DNA from: Chiloscyllium plagiosum
Taxonomy: Eukaryota
Reading direction: 5' to 3'
DNA: 20,185 nt
Assembly: GCF_004010195.1 (NCBI RefSeq)
Contig: NC_057718.1
Location: forward strand, 95,831,147-95,851,331
Position 1 is the stretch's first letter, and each line of letters starts with the position of its first letter. The position numbers were made by a program, and so were the translations under genes. The notes under the pieces were generated by a model that searched no databases, had not been told where the DNA came from, and saw nothing but the letters and a program-made list of their open reading frames with translations. This document shows positions 4,219 to 16,097 of the stretch, piece after piece.

Positions 4219-5377
4219 GCGTGCAGATATATGACAGAGAAATGGCAGATGGAGTTCAATCTGGGTAAGTGTGAGGTGTTGCACTTTGGAAGATCAAATG
4301 TCAAGGAAAAATATACAGTTAATGGCAGGACCCTGAACAGCATTGATGTACAGAAGAATTTTGGGGTTCAAGTCCATAGTTCTCTGAAAGTGGCCACACG
4401 AGTAGATAGTATGGTAAAGAAGGCGTGTTGTATACTTTCCTTTTTTGGTCAGGGAATCGAGTACAAGAGTCAGGATGTTATGTTGTAGTTTTATAAGACT
4501 TTGGTTAGGCCATACTTAGAGTAGTCCATTCAATTCTGGTCACCACATGACAGGAAGGATGTGGAATCTTTGGAGAGGATGCAGAAGAGGTTTATCAGTG
4601 TGCTGCCTGGGGGGCATGGCGGCTAAGTGGTTAGCACTGCTGCCTCACAGTGCTAGGTACCAGGTTCGATTCCCACCTCAGGCAACAGTCTGTGTGGAGT
4701 TTGCACGTTCGTCCCGTGTCTGTGTGTGTTTCTTCTGGGTGCTCTGGTTTCCTCCCACAGTCCAAAGATGTGCAGGTCAGGTGGATTGGCTGCACTAAAT
4801 TACTCATAGTGTTAGCCAGGGGTAAATATAGGGTAGGGGAATGGGTCTGGGTGGGCTACTCTCTGGAGGGTCTGTGTGGACTTGTTGGGCCGCAGGGCCT
4901 GTGTCTGTCCTGAAGGGATTCTAATTCAAATTAGAGGGATAAGGATAGGCTAGAAAAACTCGGGTTGTTTTCTCTGGAGTGGCAGAGGCTGAGGGGAGAC
5001 TTGATAGAAGTCTATACAATTATGAGATGGATAGCTAGGGTTGATGGTCAGAACCTTTTTCCCAGAGTTGAAATGTCTAAAACTATGGGGCATGCATTTA
5101 AGGTGTAGGGGGAAAGTTCAAAGGAGAGGTGAAGAGTAGGTTTTTTACACAGAGAGGGGTAGGATTGCGGAATGCGCTGTCAGGGGTAGTGGTGGAAGCA
5201 GATACGATTGGGGAATCTAGGGGACTTTTAGGTGATCACATGAATATGCAGGGGATGGAGGAACATGGACCAAGGGCAGGCAAAAAGGATTGGTTTAATT
5301 TGGCGTCATGTTCAGCACAACATTGCGGGCTGAAGGGCCCATTCCTGTGTTGTGTCGTTCTATGTTCTGTGTTCTAT
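4219..5377 (+). mobile_element. CR1/HER1-type LINE 3' portion inserted in PLE A (split by a SINE at 4611-4929)
   Basis: KWQMEFNLGKCEVLHFGRSN...GVQVHSSLKVA...GIEYKSQDVML; ends in a tgttctat-like repeat tail at about 5357-5377. Confidence 0.92.
4611..4929 (+). mobile_element. tRNA-derived V-SINE (HE1-like)
   Basis: A-box-like GGCTAAGTGG, B-box GGTTCGATTCC, V-domain (gtgtggagtttgcacgtt...ggtttcctcccacagtccaaagatgtg) and a LINE-like 3' end. The CR1 reads tgctgcctgg|attagaggg across it. Confidence 0.92.
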
Positions 5378-5798
5378 CTCTTGCATTTCCACCCTCACCA
5401 CTTCCCTTCATCCCAGGACAGCAATAAAGTCCACTGGCCTTCGCATTCAAAGGATCATCCTCCACCACTCCCGCCACCTCCAGTAGGATTTCCCCAACAA
5501 ACACCCGCCCCTCCAATGTCAGCATTCCACAGGCATCATTCCCTCTGTGACACCCAGGTTCAGCTCTCCATCACTCCTAAAACTTCCTCACTCCCCCACA
5601 GCACCTACCCACACAATTACAGAAGACGCAATACTTGCCCGTTAACTTCCTCATTCTTCTTTGCCCAAGATCCCAAATATACCTTCCAGGTGAAGTAACA
5701 TTTGACTTGTAAAAACTGACAGTACTGCGGATGCTTGAAATCAGAAACAAAACCAGAAATTGCTGGAAAAGCTCAGCAGGTCCGTGGAGAGAAATCAG

Positions 5799-5836
5799 AG
5801 TTAACGCTTCGGCTGGAGTGACCCTTCCTCAGAACT
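5799..5836 (-). ncRNA. Degenerate minimal hammerhead ribozyme motif in the PLE B terminus
   Basis: AGUU-CUGAGGA-agggucacuccagcc-GAAGC-GUU-AACU. Stem I is perfect; GAAA is mutated to GAAG and stem II has decayed. Confidence 0.65.
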
Positions 5837-6653
5837 GATGGTAGCTAGGAAGATGCTGGTTTATATGCAGAATATAGAGTGGGAGAAGGGACTAAGGAGT
5901 AAATGATAGGTGAGAATAGAGCCCAAAGAGAGAGAAGAATAGTGGGACAGACAAACGAGTGGATAACGATCAGCCTGGGAGAATGAATAGCTGCTAATAG
6001 GGACAATTAATGGCAAACAATGGATAGTGTATAATACCAGATCATGTGATAACTGGGCTGGTGTGTGGGGTTTGGAGTAAGAACAAGGGAGAAGATGCTC
6101 TAAAATTGTTGAGCCCAATATTGAGTCCCAAAGGCTGTTGGGTTCCCAAGCGGATAATGAGGTGCTGTTCTTCCAGCCTGCACTGAGCGTCACTGGGACA
6201 CTGCAGCAAGCCTGAGACAGAGATGTTGGCCAGGGAACAGGGTGGGGAGTTGATGGGGCAGGCAACTGGAAGCTCAGGGTCTTTTTTTGTGAGTGGAATG
6301 TAGATGTTCTGCGAAGCTGTCACCCAGTCTATGCTTCATTTCCCCAAGGTAGAGGAGACCACATTGAGAGCAGCCAATGCAGTCGAATGGATTGTGGGAA
6401 GTGCAGGTAAAGTGCTGCTTCACCTGGAAGGTATGTTTGGGCCCTTGGATAGTGAGGAGGAAGGAGGTAAATGGATAGGTGTTACAGTTTGTGCTTTCAG
6501 GGAAAGGTGCTGTTGTGCTGTGGTGGTGGTGGTAGGGGTGGGGGATGGTGGTGGGAGGGGATGGTGCTGATGGAGTGAAGGAGGAGTGGGCCAGGGTGTC
6601 CTGGAATGAACTGTCCTTGCAGAAGGCTGACAGCAAAGGGGGGATGAGTATGT

Positions 6654-6862
6654 AACAAAAACAGAAGTTGCTGGAAAAGCTCAGCATCTGTGAAGAGAAA
6701 TTAGAGTTAACACTCCATGTCCAGTGACCCTTCTGCAGAGTTCTAAGGTCACCAGGTCTGAAATGCTAACTCTGATTTCGCGTCATGGCTGCTGCCAGTC
6801 CTGCTGAACTTTTCCAGCAACTTCTGTTTTTGTTTTCAATTTACAGCATCTGCAGTACTTTC
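6654..6862. mobile_element. Foldback PLE-terminus mini-insertion nested in PLE B
   Basis: Inverted arms 6654-6686 and 6802-6834 (32/33 complementary), two opposed degenerate hammerheads around 6740, a one-sided tail, and a diverged 14-bp TSD (6640-6653 vs 6863-6876, 11/14). Confidence 0.8.
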
Positions 6863-8321
6863 GGAGATGAATGTGTCTCTGATGGTGGCACCCTGCTGGA
6901 GGGGGCGGAAGTGGCAGCTAATGAATCTCTGGATGTGCATGCCGGTGGGATGGTAGGTGAGGACAAGGGGGACTCTATATCGCTGTTGTAGGAGGGAAGA
7001 GAGGGGGTGAGGGCTGAAGTGTGGGAGATAGGTCAGACCCAACTGAGGACCCTGTCAACTACGGTGCTGGGGAATCTTTGGTTGAGGAAGGAGGTTGGCA
7101 TTTTGGTGGCCCCCTTGTTGAAGTTGGCATCATCAGAACGTATGCGATGGAGATAGAGGAACTGGGAGAATGGAATACAGTCTTTACAGGAAGCAGGGTG
7201 TGATGATGTATAGCCAAGGTAACTGTGGGAGTCAGTGGATTTGTAATGTTTATTGATGGCCAGCCTATCCCTATAAATGGAAACAGAGATGTCGAGGAAG
7301 GGAAGGGTGGAGTCATGGATGGACCAGGTGAAGGTGAGAGCGGGTTGAAGTTGGAAGTGAAATTGTTAAACTTTTCCAATTCTAGATGGAGAGGGAACCA
7401 GCACTGATGATATCCATATCGTAGAGAAAGAGTTGTGGGTGTGGTCTGGAATAGGACTGGAACAAGGAATGTCCCACAAAGAGTCAGGCATAACCAAGGC
7501 CCATGCAGAGCAGCCATGGCCACCCCTCTGACTGGAAGAAAGTGAGAGGGGTTAAAGGGGAAGGTGTTCAGGGTGAGGATGGGCTTGGCCAGGCGGAGGA
7601 GGGTAGTAGTGGTGGTTGGTGTCAGTTCAGGACTTTTTCCTAGGAACAAACGGAGAGCCCTGAGACCGTCCTGACAGACGTGTAAAGGGATTGTATATCC
7701 ACGGTAAAGGGGAGGCAGCTGGTGCCCTCAAACTGGAAATTTAGAAACTGATGTAAAGCATCAGAGGAATCGCAGATGTAAGTGACTGGACTAATACATT
7801 TCACTTGTACTTCTTTCAATCTACTCTCTCATACTCGCTGCTCACAATGTGGTACTCATTACAGGGCTGAGACCCAACGGAGACTTGGTGACTGCTTTGG
7901 GAAAGCCTCCACTCTGCCCGCAGAAATGCCCTGGCCTTTCAATAGCTTGGCATTTCAACAAGCCATCTTGATCTTATGTCCATTTCCATCCTCGGCTCCA
8001 GAAAGGCTCATTTCGAAATGGAGGAACGACACCTCACTTTCTCCTTTGGCACTTTACATCTTTTAGCACTTAATATTGGGTTTGACAACTTCATCTTTTG
8101 CCCTTCATTTATTGTAATCTCCACCTCCCACTGCCGTATCTTGTGTGTGTTTCGTTGACATTGCTCTCAGAAGAGAGGATCCATTTTCTCCTTATCACAA
8201 ACACATTTATACCCATTGTACACTATTGCCTCTCTTTTACCACCTTTGGCAATCCCTTTGTCTTTTGCTCTGTTAAAAATCACACAACACCAAGTTATGG
8301 TCCAACAGGTTTAATTGGAAG

Positions 8322-8356
8322 CACTAGCTTTCGGAGCGCCGCTCCTTCATAAGGTG
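8322..8356 (-). ncRNA. Minimal hammerhead motif in the PLE C terminus (one core mutation)
   Basis: CAC-CUUAUGA-A-GGAGC-ggc-GCUCC-GAAAG-CUA-GUG. Stems I and II are perfect and stem III is the palindrome AGCU; CUGAUGA is mutated to CUUAUGA. Confidence 0.7.
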
Positions 8357-8737
8357 GTTGTGGAGTACACAAATGCAAGACACAGGATTTATAGCAAGAG
8401 TTTACAGTGTGATTTCACTGAAATTATACATTGAAACATACCTTGATTGTTTGTTGAGTCTTTCATCTGTTCGAATACCATGATAGTTTCACTTCTTTCA
8501 TGTCTAAATCACAAAACTTTAAAAAAAAAGTTGCATTCTCAGGTTAACTGTAACAATTGGTGTTAGCTGGATAATATGTTGAAGGTATTAGCCCCCTGTG
8601 TTCTCTGTCTGTGCCATAAAGTTTAGACTGATTCTAATCTAAAAAGTAAGATAACAGAGTCTTACATGAATTTATGCAGTTTTTGAGCAAAGTACAATGT
8701 AACTCTGCAAGTACAAATTCACCCCACAAACTTATAC

Positions 8738-9094
8738 GTGTGTGTGTGTGTGTCTGGGTTGGGGTTTTGTGAGTGTGAGAGAGAGAGAGCGTATATGTGT
8801 GTGTATATGAGTGTAGAGTGTCTTAAGTCTGTGAGGGGGTGCATGTGTGAATGTGAGAGTGAGTATGTCTGTAGGAGAGTGTGTGTGTGTCTGGGGTGGG
8901 GGGGTTGTGTCTGTGAGAGGGAGTGTATATGTGTGTGCGTGAGTGTAGAATGGTCTAAGTCTCTGAGAGGATGCCGGTGTGAGTGTGGGAGTGTGTGTGT
9001 CTGTAAGGGTGTGTGTGAATGTCTGTTAGCGTGTCTGTGTATATGTGTGCCCATGTATATGTGTGTGTATAGGAGTGTGTGTGTGTGTGTATAG
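8738..9094. repeat. GT/GA-rich low-complexity tract inside the PLE C 3' region
   Basis: Interrupted (GT)n/(GA)n with an internally duplicated unit (gagtgtaga..g...taagtct.tgag.gg.tgc..gtgtga) near 8809 and 8941. Confidence 0.9.
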
Positions 9095-9907
9095 TGCAAT
9101 GGTGGTCACCTGTAGTGTGACGTGAACCCAAGGTCCCGGTTGAGGCCCTCCCTATGGGTGTGGAACTTAGCTATCAGCCTCTGCCCAGCCACTTCTTGCT
9201 GCTGCGTGTCCCAAAGTCCGCCTTGGAGGATGGTCACCTGAAGGTCCAAGGTTGAATGGGAGGGAACCCTCCTGTCTGTTGATTGTTGTGCGGTGCCCAT
9301 TCATCTGTTGCCGTAGCCTTTGCTTGGTCCACTAAAGTAATGAGGTGTACTAATTCATTACGGACAAAGAATTGGATGTGAGATTTCCTGTCTTGGGAAA
9401 AATGATAACCAATACAACTAAGTCTTTGAGTAAACATTTTAATTTTGTACTGAATCATGAAATGGGTTATAATGACAAGTTTTTATTTGCTAAAGGAATG
9501 AAAAACTACATTTGTGCTTAATTTTGTGTTGTATCTGTATCTGAACAAGTTAATGTAATTCCGTAGAAGACATCAGCATTGATACAAATAATAGTGGCTC
9601 TCCGAAAGCTAGTGCTTCCAATTAAACCTGTTGGACTATAACATAGTGTTGTGTGAGTTTTAACTTTGTACACTCCAGTCCAACACCGGTATCTCCAAAT
9701 CTTTTGCTCTGGACACCCTCACTATCTGTTCCACTCACTCCTCCTTCCCCTCTGTCAACAGCATAAATCCACCATTTTCCAAATCTTGCAAATCTGAAGA
9801 TAGACATATCAGACTCAAAACATTTACTCTGCTTCTCACTCCACAGATGCTGCGAAAGCTGCTGAGTTTCTCTAGAATTTTCTGTTTTTGTACTAAGGCT
9901 GCTAAAA

Positions 9908-10193
9908 TCCACTAAAGTAACTTCAATTTCAGTCTGACTGAGGTGTACTAATTCATTACGGCCAAAGAATTAGATGTGAGATTTCCTGTCTTGGGAAAAA
10001 ATTATAACCAATATAACTAAGTCTTTGAGTAAACATTTTAATTTTGTAGTGTATCATGAAATGGGTTATAATGACAAGTTTTTACTTGCTAAAGGAATGA
10101 AAAACTACATTTGCGTTTAATTTTGTGTCATGTCTGTATCTGAACAAGTTAATGTAATTCCATAGAAGACATCAGCATTGATACAAATAATAG
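9908..10193 (+). repeat. Source copy of a local direct duplication (second copy at 9328-9594)
   Basis: About 95% identical by eye to 9328-9594. The left copy lacks 18 bp (9921-9938). Confidence 0.95.
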
Positions 10194-10919
10194 AGTTCTG
10201 TGGTGCCATATAATGTGTCAGACTTCAACATGAACTCTGCAGTAAAGCAAAAAAAAAGTCATGTTCCTACTGTGGGTACGTTAATACATTTTAATCAAGC
10301 ACAAATGCAGTGAAATTGCCTTTTGGTCTTCACCAGTACAGAGAGCTTTTTGTGTTGTACCCAGCCTAACCCACTAACTCTGGTTTTGTGCATGTGTAAT
10401 TAATTATAAGGAAATACTAAAACACTTGGGTAGATATTACTCTTCCACCAGATGTTCCATATGTGAGAATGTATTTACCCTTTTTTTTGAGTCAAGCATA
10501 ACAAAACTACTGTATTTGATCAGTGTTGTTTCTGTTTTCCTTCTGAACTATTCCCTGCGCTTTGAAGACCATATGGCCTTAGGAATGAAAATGTTGGAAC
10601 TGCTGTCAGTCAAGAAACATCTTGGGAACTACTGTTTGTACTGTACCATTGTGCAGCATTACAAGAAAGGGACTTTCCATGTGCTATTGACTGAAAAATA
10701 TACTCTAGGCGCTCAGATTTTAACATCAAGTAATGGTGTTAGATTTACATTTGAGAAGGGTTTGCCATTTTGTTTACATTTCACGCCGATATCCTGCAAG
10801 CTTTATACTTGCATGATATATCCTTATCGGATGGCTCAAAGACCACTTTGAATGTAATCTCATAGAATGACTTTTGGAACAGATGAAGCTATTGATATTT
10901 GACTTCAGCTAGTTAAATA

Positions 10920-11214
10920 CGGTGGCTCAGTGGTTAGCACTGCTGCCTCACAGCACCAGCGTCCCAGGTTTGATCCCAGCCTCAGGTGATTGTCTGTGTG
11001 TAGTTTGCACGTTCTCCCTGTGCCTGCGCGGGTTTCCTCTGGGTGCTCTGGTTTCCTCCCCAGTCCAAAGATGTGCTGGTTAGGTGAATTGGCCATGCTA
11101 ATTTGCCCATAGTGTTAGATGCATTAGTCAGAGGGAAATGGGTCTGGGTGGGTTACTCTTTGGAGGGTTGGTTTGGGCTGAAGGGCCTGTTTCTACACTG
11201 TAGGGAATCTAATC
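10920..11214 (+). mobile_element. tRNA-derived V-SINE (HE1-like)
   Basis: A-box TGGCTCAGTGG, degenerate B-box GGTTTGATCCC, V-domain, aatct-repeat tail, and TSD taaata at 10914-10919 and 11215-11220. Confidence 0.93.
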
Positions 11215-11357
11215 TAAATATGCATTACAGAACATGAGAAAAGTAATGAGTAAGATTTGATCTATTGAGATCATGCACATTTCGCCTTTATGTAAACTTA
11301 AACTAATTTAATTAATGTCCCCCCAAGAGCTGGTCTACATGGCTAAAAGATCAAGTG

Positions 11358-11509
11358 GGAGAAAGTGAGGACTGCAGATGCTGGAGATCAGAGCTGAAAA
11401 ATGTGTTGCTGGAAAAGTGCAGAAGGGCTAATGCCCGAAACGTCGATTCTCCTGCTCCTTGGATGCTGCCTGACCTGCTGCGCTTTTCCAGCAACACATT
11501 TTTCAGCCG
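11358..11509. mobile_element. Foldback PLE-terminus mini-insertion with a partial hammerhead
   Basis: Inverted arms 11393-11422 and 11478-11507; AGA-A-GGGC-uaau-GCCC-GAAAC-GUC at 11421-11444; TSD ta(a/g)aagatcaagtg at 11344-11357 and 11510-11523. Confidence 0.87.
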
Positions 11510-12758
11510 TAGAAGATCAAGTGTACAACACGGTTCAAAATTCCTCCCTGAACTCCAGATCAGGTTGTGAATTGGATTGGACAAAACATTCTTCAACCTT
11601 TGTTGTCTCCATAGAGATGATTAGGTCCCAATGCTACAGAGCCATTATGTCCCATTTATCATCTAGACTCTTGTTTCACAATCTGGATGTTGTCGGTATT
11701 AAGATAGTACAAAAGATCACACAACTGTTTTTCATCCAAATGTTACTAACTTCTTTTAATGTCAACTTAATCTACATTTCCACTGTGAGGTGAGCAAAAA
11801 CGAAACTTCCAATCTCTGTATGACCTTGAAAAGTGTTAAATCTGTCACTGTTTACCCCCCTTCTGTTTTTATTTATATTATCAGTGTTATTTGGCATTGA
11901 TGTCCACATGTGATGTTAGCTTTAAATTTAGGTTTCAAAGCTCTTCATCAACCTTGCTCTGAAAAACAAATTTGTACAGTATTTTCTATAAACCGGAATC
12001 ATTAAACATAAACCTCATTAATAACCTCATTGATAATCACTCAGCTTTTTGTGTTCCACGTTTGCTAATAGATACCCATTCATTAGGCACACATGTTTCA
12101 CATTTCCTTTCCCAATGTGCATTTTGTTACTTTAATTCATGTTAAAAATCCATCTGCCACTCCTTAGGCTCTCCGTTTAGTTTCTACGAATGCCTTTGAA
12201 TGTTGTTAATTTCCCTTAGGTGGTTCTAATGATTTGGGTTTTGGCTTTCAAGACCAAACCCAATCAAAAAGGCTCTATAATTCAATTTTCTGTACAGACT
12301 GCCCTGGGTTAGGAAGAAGCCTGACCCCACCCCCCCCCCCCGCCCCCCCGCCTTTTGAGGCCCAGACTTGGTGATGTGCACAGTTGCACGAGTGTCCAAA
12401 GCAAAAGGCCAGTGGGCTGATAAAAATTGATCCTTGCTACTTGTTTGAGTACAGGGCATCACTGAGAGGTGACCTTCAGTTAAAACATGGCATTGGGGAA
12501 GGGGGAGGTGGGGACCGGTTGGAATGGGGCAAGGCGAACCTGATGACTGTCTTGCGAGGTGGCTGATCTGTGAAAGGGGTCCTTTTGATGGGTCAAGGCA
12601 CTACTTTGTAGTTTTAAAAGGGACCTAATGCCTATTCTAGGCATTGGTAGTGCCAATGTAGAATAGGAATGGAGACCAACTGTCTGCTGTCTTAATATAC
12701 TTTGTGCCCTAACAACAGCAGCAATATGTACTGCTCAGAGTCTAACCAAAATAACTCT

Positions 12759-14175: not shown

Positions 14176-14220
14176 CTTATGTTCCCTGTCAAATTGCTAG
14201 GGATTCCCTGACGAGCAAAT

Positions 14221-14387
14221 AAACCAAAAGGACTGCGGATGCTGGAAATCAGAAAGAAAAAACGAAAAATCAGTTCTTCAGTTCTGAAGGAGGGTCACAG
14301 GACCAGAAACGTTAACTCTGTTTTCTCTCTATAGACGCTGCCAACGCTACTGGATTTTTGCAGCAATATTTGTTTTTGTTTCTGATT
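14221..14387. mobile_element. Foldback PLE-terminus mini-insertion (family of PLE B) with a hammerhead motif
   Basis: Tail plus short inverted arms (aatcagaaa.../...tttctgatt); AGUU-CUGAAGG-agggucacaggacca-GAAAC-GUU-AACU at 14280-14317; possible TSD agcaa(a/g)t at 14214-14220 and 14388-14394. Confidence 0.78.
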
Positions 14388-15788: not shown

Positions 15789-16097
15789 AGCCTCTCGTGG
15801 TATAGTGGTAGTGTCCCTAACTTTGGTTGTGTTATGTCCTAGGCGAAAATGAGTATTGTAGATGCTGGAGATTAGAGTCAAAATTAGAGTGGTGCTGGAA
15901 AAGTACCACAGGTCAGGCAGCATCCGAGGAGCAGGAAAATTGATGTTTCGGGCAAAAGCCCTTCTGAAACATCGATTTTCCTGCTCCTTGGATGCTGCCT
16001 GACCTGCTGTGCTTTTCCAGCACCACTCTAATCTTCTGTTATGTCCTGCCTACTCCAGATGTGGGTCAGAATATCTACAGAGAGGTTGATTACAAAT
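15789..16097 (+). mobile_element. Short degenerate tRNA-derived SINE interrupted by a PLE mini-insertion
   Basis: A-box-like TGGTATAGTGG at 15798-15808 followed by tagtgtccct; resumes after the TSD as gcctactccagatgtg...aggttgatta. Confidence 0.55.
15841..16036. mobile_element. Foldback PLE-terminus mini-insertion
   Basis: About 67-bp inverted arms 15883-15949 and 15966-16032 around a loop containing hammerhead stem II (GGGCAAAAGCCC); one-sided tail; perfect 11-bp TSD tgttatgtcct at 15830-15840 and 16037-16047. Confidence 0.9.

Follow-up and report, generated by a model that had tools for sequence, protein, structure and literature searches.

How does a piece of flanking DNA come to lie inside a transposon insertion whose target-site duplication (TSD) is intact? 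The question is raised by a Penelope-like insertion of 1,427 bp in Chiloscyllium plagiosum, located inside an older element in the 20,185-nucleotide stretch that was analysed (the window). From left to right it consists of a minus-strand body cut in the GIY-YIG domain at 9328, a filler of 267 bp and an inverted arm that carries a tail of 35 nt. This is the order given by a first-pass annotation, which had placed the truncation near 9329.

The insertion is flanked by a perfect 12-bp TSD, as the annotation had claimed. Letter comparison of the left copy (8261–8272) with the right one (9700–9711) gives 12 matches out of 12 that are not extendable, and this 12-mer occurs nowhere else in the window. 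The target is an older, decayed Penelope-like element of another family on the plus strand, whose left part (7797–8260, ORF end and 3' UTR) is defined by an alignment across the TSD and whose remainder (9712–9891) by an alignment with another copy. When the insertion is excised in silico, 7797–8272 and 9712–9891 align continuously to the older-element copy at ca 5750–6415 on the minus strand, with a score of 324 compared to at most 123 in 20 shuffles. The TSD thus marks the true target site.

The 3' part of the inserted element (8273–9108, minus strand) comprises an untailed end at 8273 and a TG-rich 3' UTR, with a hammerhead-like motif at ca 8300–8360 and a repeat of 132-bp period at 8742–9078, both on the minus strand. 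Next to it lies the C-terminal part of a GIY-YIG endonuclease ORF (9109–9328, minus strand), whose 5' truncation lies immediately behind the domain's second motif and downstream of the reverse transcriptase. The inverted arm, that is, the second cDNA (9593–9664, plus strand), starts inside the hammerhead-like motif, is identical to the reverse complement of 8272–8343 at 66 of 72 positions, and adjoins the body but for the filler. The 35-nt tail (9665–9699, plus strand) is found on the inverted arm only, and the ends of the family pile up at 9665–9669 and 9701.

These features are those of the EN+ Penelope-like elements, since the C-terminal GIY-YIG endonuclease, the inverted 5'-truncated copy next to the 5' end and the one-ended tail of 30–40 nt are all present. 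The 50-aa GIY-YIG piece matched nine proteins among 11 candidates, at 59–80% identity, and the homologue P0006 passes the Pfam GIY-YIG cut-off over residues 25–65, overlapping the piece encoded at 9257–9328. Taken alone, the window's own fragments gave no Pfam family match (0 of 4), and the ESM Atlas returned 30 unnamed clusters, with GIY-YIG only as a lead at 0.85. The ORF is damaged at 9257/9258, where ca 20–25 nt are lost and the frame changes, and contigs have loose ends at the same position. For the hammerhead-like region a three-way fold is predicted (z −1.8), and the family consensus presumably contains the hammerhead core sequence; the six Rfam matches are weak, none of them being a hammerhead or meaningful.

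We consider now the filler itself (9328–9594, plus strand). It aligns in the same orientation, in three blocks, with the segment 9908–10193 outside the insertion, with 254 of 267 positions identical (95.1%, 13 substitutions), which bears out the copy of about 95% identity that had been reported. The first 13 nt (9328–9340) are identical to 9908–9920, this 13-mer being present in the window only at 9328 and 9908, while the main part (9341–9594) is a copy of 9939–10193. One alignment gap comprises 18 nt (9921–9938) and lies 13 nt from the left junction, close to which the annotation had noticed 18 missing base pairs; the other is 1 nt in an A run. The outside segment is single-copy flank DNA on the plus strand with 30% GC, 196–482 bp to the right of the TSD. 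In organisms B and C it is continuous with its own flank and keeps the 18 nt. The relatives thus show 9908–10193 to be the parent, and the 18 bp missing from the copy to be ancestral. A hairpin was rejected as the cause of the 18-nt skip, the sole predicted one being weak (−2.4 kcal/mol) and overlapping the gap edge without enclosing the gap. Error-prone copying was likewise rejected, as neither the clustering of substitutions (four neighbouring pairs within 3 nt, p 0.06) nor the share of polarised differences assigned to the copy (9 of 12, p 0.15) is significant. No function was found for the filler, and the locus gave no sign of function.

The filler is located exactly at the inversion point between body and arm, with no leftover element sequence on either side. 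The longest word common to its flanks is 3 nt, and it has no TSD of its own. At the left junction 1–2 nt are shared, the third letter misfitting the Glu/Lys codon of the four homologues that cover the place, and the 2–3 nt (tcc) given earlier has to be corrected accordingly; at the right junction 2 nt are shared. Microhomologies of this size are at chance level (P for at least 2 nt = 0.18), and with no excess over chance they were rejected as support for the mechanism. Near-blunt junctions (1–2 and 2 nt) would suit end joining, in which a single-stranded piece from the resected right end or the sister chromatid is ligated between the cDNA tips without new synthesis, and cleavage of single-stranded DNA fragments has been proposed for some L1-associated genomic inserts (PMC11702581, Fig. 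S10A). However, a 13-nt piece followed by an 18-nt skip would need a second event, which makes such a capture very improbable; it also predicts random orientation, which a single case cannot test.

It is important to establish whether the filler is a true local copy or stems instead from a dispersed repeat, the family consensus or a faulty assembly. Uniqueness was judged on public short-read contigs over the stretch 9100–10900, which begins to the right of the left flank; no empty site appears among the joints (15 listed out of 125) and loose ends (24 listed out of 2,296). Contigs from this species or one very close to it show the filler and parent copies separately, each at single-copy depth; the depth of the segment is single-copy in four of four runs, with two copies in run X15. 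In that run (82% likeness), the body has a depth of more than 200,000 and the filler one of 12.9, and a contig of 295 letters is identical over 9299–9593, spanning the left junction. The filler contig and a contig identical to the parent meet at a shared 31-mer, where the depth is 22.5 compared to 12.9 + 9.9, and for this region the predicted bin depth of 29.497 agrees with the observed 29.5. Furthermore, the family sequence upstream of the arm is the 5' half of the hammerhead, not the filler, and the run contigs show loose ends of the family before 9600. Within the limits of short-read contigs, the separate appearance of both copies at single-copy depth thus excludes an assembly error, a dispersed repeat or an origin in the family consensus.

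The body-to-filler depth drop, the separate contigs converging on a 31-mer of double depth, the hammerhead half upstream of the arm and the 13 substitutions all argue against a non-local origin, which we regard as extremely improbable. Nothing was found in its favour; no independent contig shows the left half of the insertion or the right junction. The earlier argument that the divergence speaks against an assembly error is upheld by the separate contigs and the substitutions, and of the findings the annotation had named as fatal to its reading (a dispersed repeat, a part of the PLE C consensus, an own TSD) none of the three was obtained. As to reads spanning the structure, one contig does so at the left junction, whereas the right junction is bridged by none among the contigs listed. 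What is confirmed is thus a non-element genomic segment duplicated inside a TSD-bounded insert, with the parent intact nearby.

Some further features of the contigs should be mentioned. Run X15 has no cover at 9954–10072, the two copies having visibly been merged by graph simplification. Bin 9527–9587 holds 140 excess depth-letters, which would fit a 6-fold contig from 9565, by arithmetic and not as a sighting. Zero cover of the filler (four bins, 9344–9587) in organisms B (X8) and C (X10, X11) was not counted as evidence, because B also has no cover over the single-copy stretch 10001–10130, and because the C runs were read to 86–87%, the records were filtered, and the X15 graph merged the copies. 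Contig ends of organism B at 10000 and 10131, beside filler/parent differences and resembling the forks of a two-copy graph, were not counted either (chance ca 0.003), because they were noticed post hoc and need two unlisted equalities.

The ages of filler and element bear on when the copy was made. The divergence between filler and parent (13/267) does not differ significantly from that between the arms (6/72; Fisher p 0.26), and the element differs from the family majority at 13 of 329 listed places compared to 13/534 per lineage for the filler (p 0.22; 0.22–0.37 on the listed rows). The point estimates, 2.4% per lineage for the filler and 4.0–4.2% for the element, lean to a younger filler. 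If all 10 unlisted X15 difference rows were in the element, the age gap would have a p of 0.0015, and subfamily differences inflate the element figure. The two ages are compatible. A clock places the duplication at 2.0–2.5 times the split from organism C (range 1.3–4.1). In a two-copy graph, contigs should break at shared sequence, and those of organism A do break there, whereas in both runs of organism C one contig passes from 9953 over 10193 without a break. A date before the C split sits badly with this, and of the proposal that the divergence dates the insertion there remains a rough date for the duplication.

A nominally lower divergence of the filler than of arm and consensus would also suit a later repair event, that is, an insertion without filler that suffered a double-strand break near the inversion junction, perhaps favoured by the fold-back centre, and was repaired by copying the nearby flank, with removal of the original junction. 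The end product would be the same. We consider this unlikely, although it deserves some weight, since another break, independent of the first, would have had to be patched in just such a way that the junction was replaced, the age differences are not significant, and the lengths of body and arm match unfilled junctions of other copies. Namely, in these copies (3 of 12 rows listed, of 22) the body is cut at 9173, 9194 or 9302 and joined to an arm from 9614, 9607 or 9608, with 3, 11 and 28 letters in between. Given such similar cut points, the body and arm lengths observed here need no later deletion. In the 28-letter junction, letters 2–11 match the reverse complement of 9294–9303 at 9 of 10 positions, which, judged by eye, may represent fold-back synthesis at another junction. 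Among the four other fold-back pairs in the window, none has a flank-derived filler.

From the position of the filler and the ages we infer that it was probably formed during integration. It is most likely the scar of a polymerase that borrowed neighbouring DNA as template during sealing, and we hold it probable that reverse transcription proceeded from both target ends, one cDNA end then copying the flank opposite to it and only afterwards joining the second cDNA end. In this mechanism, the element endonuclease would cut both strands 12 nt apart, as the TSD suggests, and the reverse transcriptase would start at two sites separated by 35 nt and extend both 3' ends, yielding a left cDNA of ca 1,056 nt and a right one of ca 107 nt, in line with the observed architecture. 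For an anole element, cutting of both strands, extension of both ends and the use of two start sites have been demonstrated in vitro (PMC11167929), and the same paper states that the transposition steps after reverse transcription are unvalidated. The cDNA tips having no complementarity, the break would stay open, and the top strand of the right end would be resected or unwound over ca 500 nt or more. The left cDNA tip would then prime on the exposed bottom strand at 9908, copy 13 nt, slip 18 nt forward and continue to 10193; the orientation and side of the copy are observed, while we infer the direction and the timing of the slip. Finally, the strand would be released and joined to the right cDNA tip at a 2-nt overlap, and filling of both gaps would preserve the TSD as well as the parent.

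When one end primes on the other, resected end, the expected product is a direct repeat of the opposite flank (PMC7165422). The polymerase could be the element's own enzyme working on DNA or a host repair enzyme that acts in a manner similar to synthesis-dependent strand annealing, and a mirror route in which the right cDNA invades its own flank would give the same product. Against this mechanism, the 267 nt copied and the distance of 196 nt exceed what is usual for polymerase theta and are at or beyond the L1 norm, and a later break at the junction would yield an identical product. Of the annotation's Penelope-mediated local templated duplication, the local two-copy direct duplication with its parent outside stands, while the element's reverse transcriptase is a putative maker.

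Another option is an RNA template. Here, the reverse transcriptase would jump from its own RNA to a putative minus-strand transcript of 9908–10193, copy 267 nt and join the second cDNA. The orientation of the filler suits a minus-strand RNA, and the accessible part of PMC10191854 holds one L1 case of a co-inserted local pre-mRNA. The 18-nt gap moreover reads GT...AG on the minus strand, but so do 0.3–0.4% of 18-nt windows, and the match was spotted after several other features had been examined. Neither poly(A) nor an exon is apparent, a rough scan for splice sites having returned a single weak candidate, on the plus strand, and nothing on the minus strand. Apart from the dinucleotides the gap sites show no splice consensus, and vertebrate introns have a minimum length far above 18 nt. 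We therefore find an RNA template quite unlikely. Somewhat less probable still is the proposal that the element's reverse transcriptase bridges two unmatched cDNA tips, left at each insertion by the extension of both target ends, by jumping onto local nucleic acid, in this case the putative flank transcript; if true, inversion junctions with flank-derived fillers would be recurring traces of how insertions are sealed, and the elements would have a means to duplicate host DNA in place. Its extreme form, in which the GT...AG gap is an ultra-short splice-like excision from RNA, is hardly credible.

If copying of the opposite flank during sealing is correct, a filler from that flank together with an intact TSD preserves the trace of a two-ended intermediate that stayed open long enough for ca 500 nt of flank to serve as template, and it represents a small route by which Penelope-like elements duplicate host DNA locally. 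A single case teaches little. However, such junctions are very numerous in shark genomes, and a tally of their fillers by side, orientation, distance and transcription bias would separate host repair from an enzyme jump.

How does this compare with known systems? The EN+ Penelope-like insertion unit consists of a 5'-truncated body, an adjacent inverted copy and a one-sided tail of 30–40 nt (PMC3846280, PMC8557442 and PMC11167929, in their accessible parts), all of which is present here, plus the 12-bp TSD. The canonical junctions described in these parts are direct, palindromic or with microhomology, also with captured host spacers or trans-mobilised genes; here, in contrast, the filler is copied from the target's own flank. 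It shows neither the several loci nor the own TSD of a transduction or a dispersed non-autonomous repeat. The accessible part of PMC9977147 has nothing on flank-derived filler, and we found no report in the literature of templated insertions in Penelope-like elements. The direct-repeat insertions of polymerase theta, as far as covered by the accessible part of PMC7165422, are similar in the orientation expected if one end primes on the second resected end, in short or no microhomology (at chance level here), in the AT-rich template (30% GC here), and in a short first round (13 nt here) followed by re-priming. They usually comprise 3–30 bp from within 30 bp, and the present filler is ca 10 times longer and from several times further from the break. 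In L1, 22 templated insertions were found among ca 3,600 solo insertions (10.1101/2024.08.27.596794) and three in cell clones (PMC11702581), with templates typically below 250 bp and within 15 bp. Unlike this norm, which is not a definition, the template here is 267–286 bp long and 196 bp from the site, and unlike those insertions the present one involves a Penelope-like element, is germline and old, and has its filler between two inverted element ends. As a kind of accident, such a templated copy is already known in human L1.

The insertion is bounded by two identical 12-mers (8261-8272 and 9700-9711), which cannot be extended and have no third occurrence in the window. Between them lie the main part of the Penelope-like element on the minus strand (the body, 8273-9328), a filler (9328-9594) in the same orientation as 9908-10193 to the right of the insertion, and an inverted element end (the arm, 9593-9699) running opposite to the body. 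In the arm, 66 of 72 letters agree with 8272-8343, and a further 35 constitute a tail. The layout described in the first-pass annotation, that is, 12-bp target site duplications (TSDs), body, filler and inverted tailed end, is all present in the sequence. When the flanks are joined in silico without the insert, they align unbroken to a second window copy of an older Penelope-like family (score 324, compared to 123 for the best of 20 shuffles), and the TSD therefore marks a true target inside the older element.

By homology, what the body encodes is the terminal portion of a GIY-YIG protein. Of 11 candidate proteins, 9 are matched by a 50-aa piece of it, and three of these 9 carry the name Chiloscyllium punctatum (bamboo shark). 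One homologue passes the GIY-YIG cut-off of Pfam, and none of the four window fragments themselves matches a Pfam family. The alignment of the window to these proteins reaches 9328, directly past the second motif of the domain. Compared to its family, the element has lost ca 20-25 nt at 9257-9258, inside the GIY-YIG region, with a change of frame, and it has three adjoining substitutions relative to the family majority at 9160-9162, possibly one multi-base event. Its 3' UTR contains a TG-rich repeat (8742-9078) with a period of 132 bp and slightly more than two copies. The left end of the element is predicted to fold in a hammerhead-like manner and contains a putative hammerhead core motif; an Rfam search gave no hammerhead match.

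For endonuclease-bearing Penelope-like elements, PMC3846280 and PMC8557442 give as the usual unit a truncated body, an adjoining inverted copy and a one-sided tail of 30-40 nt. In PMC11167929, an anole element is described to cut and extend both strands in vitro and to start reverse transcription at two adjacent sites, the spacing of which is the tail, while the later steps of transposition are called unvalidated by the authors. The same two-site pattern is found here, with family ends in public contigs clustering at 9665-9669 and 9701 (comparison over 9100-10900).

Aligned in the same orientation to 9908-10193, the filler shows 13 substitutions among 267 aligned letters, lacks 18 nt (9921-9938) at a distance of 13 nt from the left, body/filler junction, and has an additional 1-nt gap within an A run. 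This confirms the earlier description of a copy ca 95% identical, with an 18-nt loss near the junction. Read on the minus strand, the gap begins with GT and ends with AG, and there is no microhomology at its exact ends; a 3-nt repeat close to both ends would yield a 17-nt loss. As to the overlap at the left junction, previously given as ca 2-3 nt, 1-2 nt can be retained but not 3 nt, as the third letter misfits the Glu or Lys codon present in the 4 homologues covering that place. At the right, filler/arm junction, 2 nt are common to both sides. Since blunt joins give an overlap of at least 2 nt by chance in 18% of cases, these overlaps support nothing.

Public short-read contigs were compared over 9100-10900 at 82% likeness in four of the 24 runs listed for 9100-12100, namely X15 (organism A, the same or a very close species, and a different study from the top holder), X8 (organism B), and X10 and X11 (one sample of organism C). 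The tables used comprise 40 of 70 rows of differences, 15 of 125 joints, 12 of 22 filler rows and 32 of 134,886 pieces. In X15, a 295-letter contig is identical to 9299-9593 (depth 12.9) and reaches 29-31 letters past the left junction into the element, which is borderline under the tool's 31-letter rule, and a second contig is identical to 10073-10192 (depth 9.9). The two end at the last 31-mer with a private base, 9563 and 10162, respectively, as is necessary where two paths run together into a shared 31-mer. The remaining depth at the shared 31-mer is 22.5, compared to 22.8 for the sum of the two contigs, and for the bin 10137-10197 a depth of 29.497 is predicted from these contig coordinates and 29.5 observed. 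Because the contig ends and depths add up, both copies are in the sample, with this 31-mer occurring twice. That we are dealing with an artefact or a repeat is exceedingly improbable, considering that filler and parent contigs both occur at single-copy-like depth compared to body and arm, which are 2 x 10^4 to 2 x 10^5 times deeper than the filler. This contrast, together with the finding that in the family the arm is preceded by the 5' half of the hammerhead-like motif, rules out the dispersed repeat and the part of the family consensus that the first-pass annotation had named as counter-explanations. A TSD of the filler's own, also named there, is not seen, the longest word common to its two flanks being 3 nt. 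Among the contigs listed for the four runs over 9100-10900, none bridges the right junction.

Judged from these contigs, the outside copy (9908-10193) is the parent. One contig of organism B spans 9783-10000 gap-free, which makes the 18 nt ancestral and places the segment after the end of the older element. In organism C, one contig extends from 9953 to past 10900 in both runs; it has 990 letters, starts exactly at 9953 in X10 and X11, and has no overlapping neighbour. At the 12 filler/parent differences in 9996-10193, C carries, among the rows listed, the filler letter at three (9996, 10003 and 10162) and the parent letter at nine, assuming that 5 unlisted differences of its contig lie near the ends or under overlapping contigs. 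At 10162, a CpG site, organism B agrees with the parent in its derived letter. Unless this change recurred, the duplication is therefore older than the A/B split. With 16-21 differences per 707 flank letters between C and the window, a simple clock would give the duplication an age of 2.0-2.5 times the split from C (range 1.3-4.1), and the filler is thus expected in C. However, the C contig crosses 10193 unbroken, where the A contigs break; the filler may have been lost in C, an old polymorphism may have sorted, the copy may have changed faster, or the two copies may have been merged in assembly. Over the stretch compared, which starts to the right of the left TSD, no empty site was seen, and the missing coverage of the filler in B and C was left out of the argument. 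At 10518-10521, two X8 contigs meet, and the 30 and 26 unaligned letters at their facing ends probably represent an insertion in B that is absent from the window.

It is unlikely that the filler is a later patch, placed by repair after the insertion. The point estimates of both age comparisons do lean towards a filler younger than the element, but on the listed rows the differences are not significant, neither for filler/parent against arm/arm (13/267 and 6/72, p 0.26) nor for the element against the family majority (13/329 listed places, compared to 13/534 per lineage for the filler; p 0.22, or 0.37 without CpG changes). With all 10 unlisted difference rows charged to the element, a younger filler becomes significant (p 0.0015), a figure inflated by subfamily differences. 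Position is a stronger argument for a single event than the ages: the filler replaces nothing that had to exist, since other family copies join bodies cut at 9173, 9194 or 9302 to arms that start at 9614, 9607 or 9608, with 3, 11 and 28 intervening letters, respectively (3 of the 12 listed rows, 22 in all). Some of these letters may merely be diverged element sequence. In the 28-letter case, letters 2-11 agree by eye with 9294-9303 in reverse complement at 9 of 10 places, which resembles fold-back synthesis, here at a junction other than that of the filler.

Flank-derived filler was found at none of the four other fold-back pairs in the window; a fifth fragment is single-armed. Two short fold-back Penelope-like insertions (11358-11507 and 15842-16036) have exact 11-bp TSDs and junctions without filler, a fold-back element end with a degenerate TSD (6654-6862) is nested in an older minus-strand Penelope-like copy, and a pair of another Penelope-like family (14219-14387) has 14 unassigned central letters with an 8-nt tandem duplication (14270-14277 = 14278-14285). 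Two copies of a SINE-like repeat (4657-4882 and 10920-11220) are ca 82-85% alike.

The TSD, the two oppositely primed element ends, the direct copy from 196-482 bp rightward and the intact parent are the observations on which a mechanism can be based. We consider it fairly likely that the opposite flank was copied as a local template during sealing of the insertion. The two cDNA tips would have been unable to anneal, and the right end would have turned single-stranded over ca 500 nt. Priming of the left tip at 9908 could then have given a first copy of 13 nt, and renewed priming after a skip of 18 nt a second one as far as 10193, after which this end would have joined the right tip. According to PMC7165422, priming of one end on a second resected end leads to direct repeats of the flank, and polymerase theta inserts are 3-30 bp, with templates within ca 30 bp. 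Given these sizes, more processive synthesis would be needed here; a host polymerase could have performed it, or the element's enzyme acting on DNA.

A jump onto a local RNA is a rather doubtful source. The minus strand, on which the gap has its GT...AG ends, is indeed the one that an RNA template would have, and such ends occur in 0.3-0.4% of 18-nt windows. However, they were spotted after other features had been tried, further splice signals are lacking, and vertebrate introns are far longer than 18 nt. No minus-strand candidate came out of a crude exon scan. It is very unlikely that a cut fragment was captured between the cDNA tips.

Copying of the flank thus remains our preferred reading, and the structure is a real, old, locally templated duplication in an otherwise canonical Penelope-like insertion. 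No sign of function was seen for filler or insertion, and transduction was rejected for the filler. In the literature covered, which includes the accessible parts of PMC3846280, PMC8557442 and PMC11167929 and few subscription journals, we found no Penelope-like filler copied from the target's own flank; captured host spacers and a trans-mobilised gene are described in PMC3846280. For L1, PMC11702581 reports three insertions templated by genomic DNA close by, including one with a slippage deletion, and PMC10191854 reports one co-inserted local pre-mRNA. The C. plagiosum filler works like the L1-associated templated insertions, while its 267 letters set it apart in size from a polymerase theta insert.
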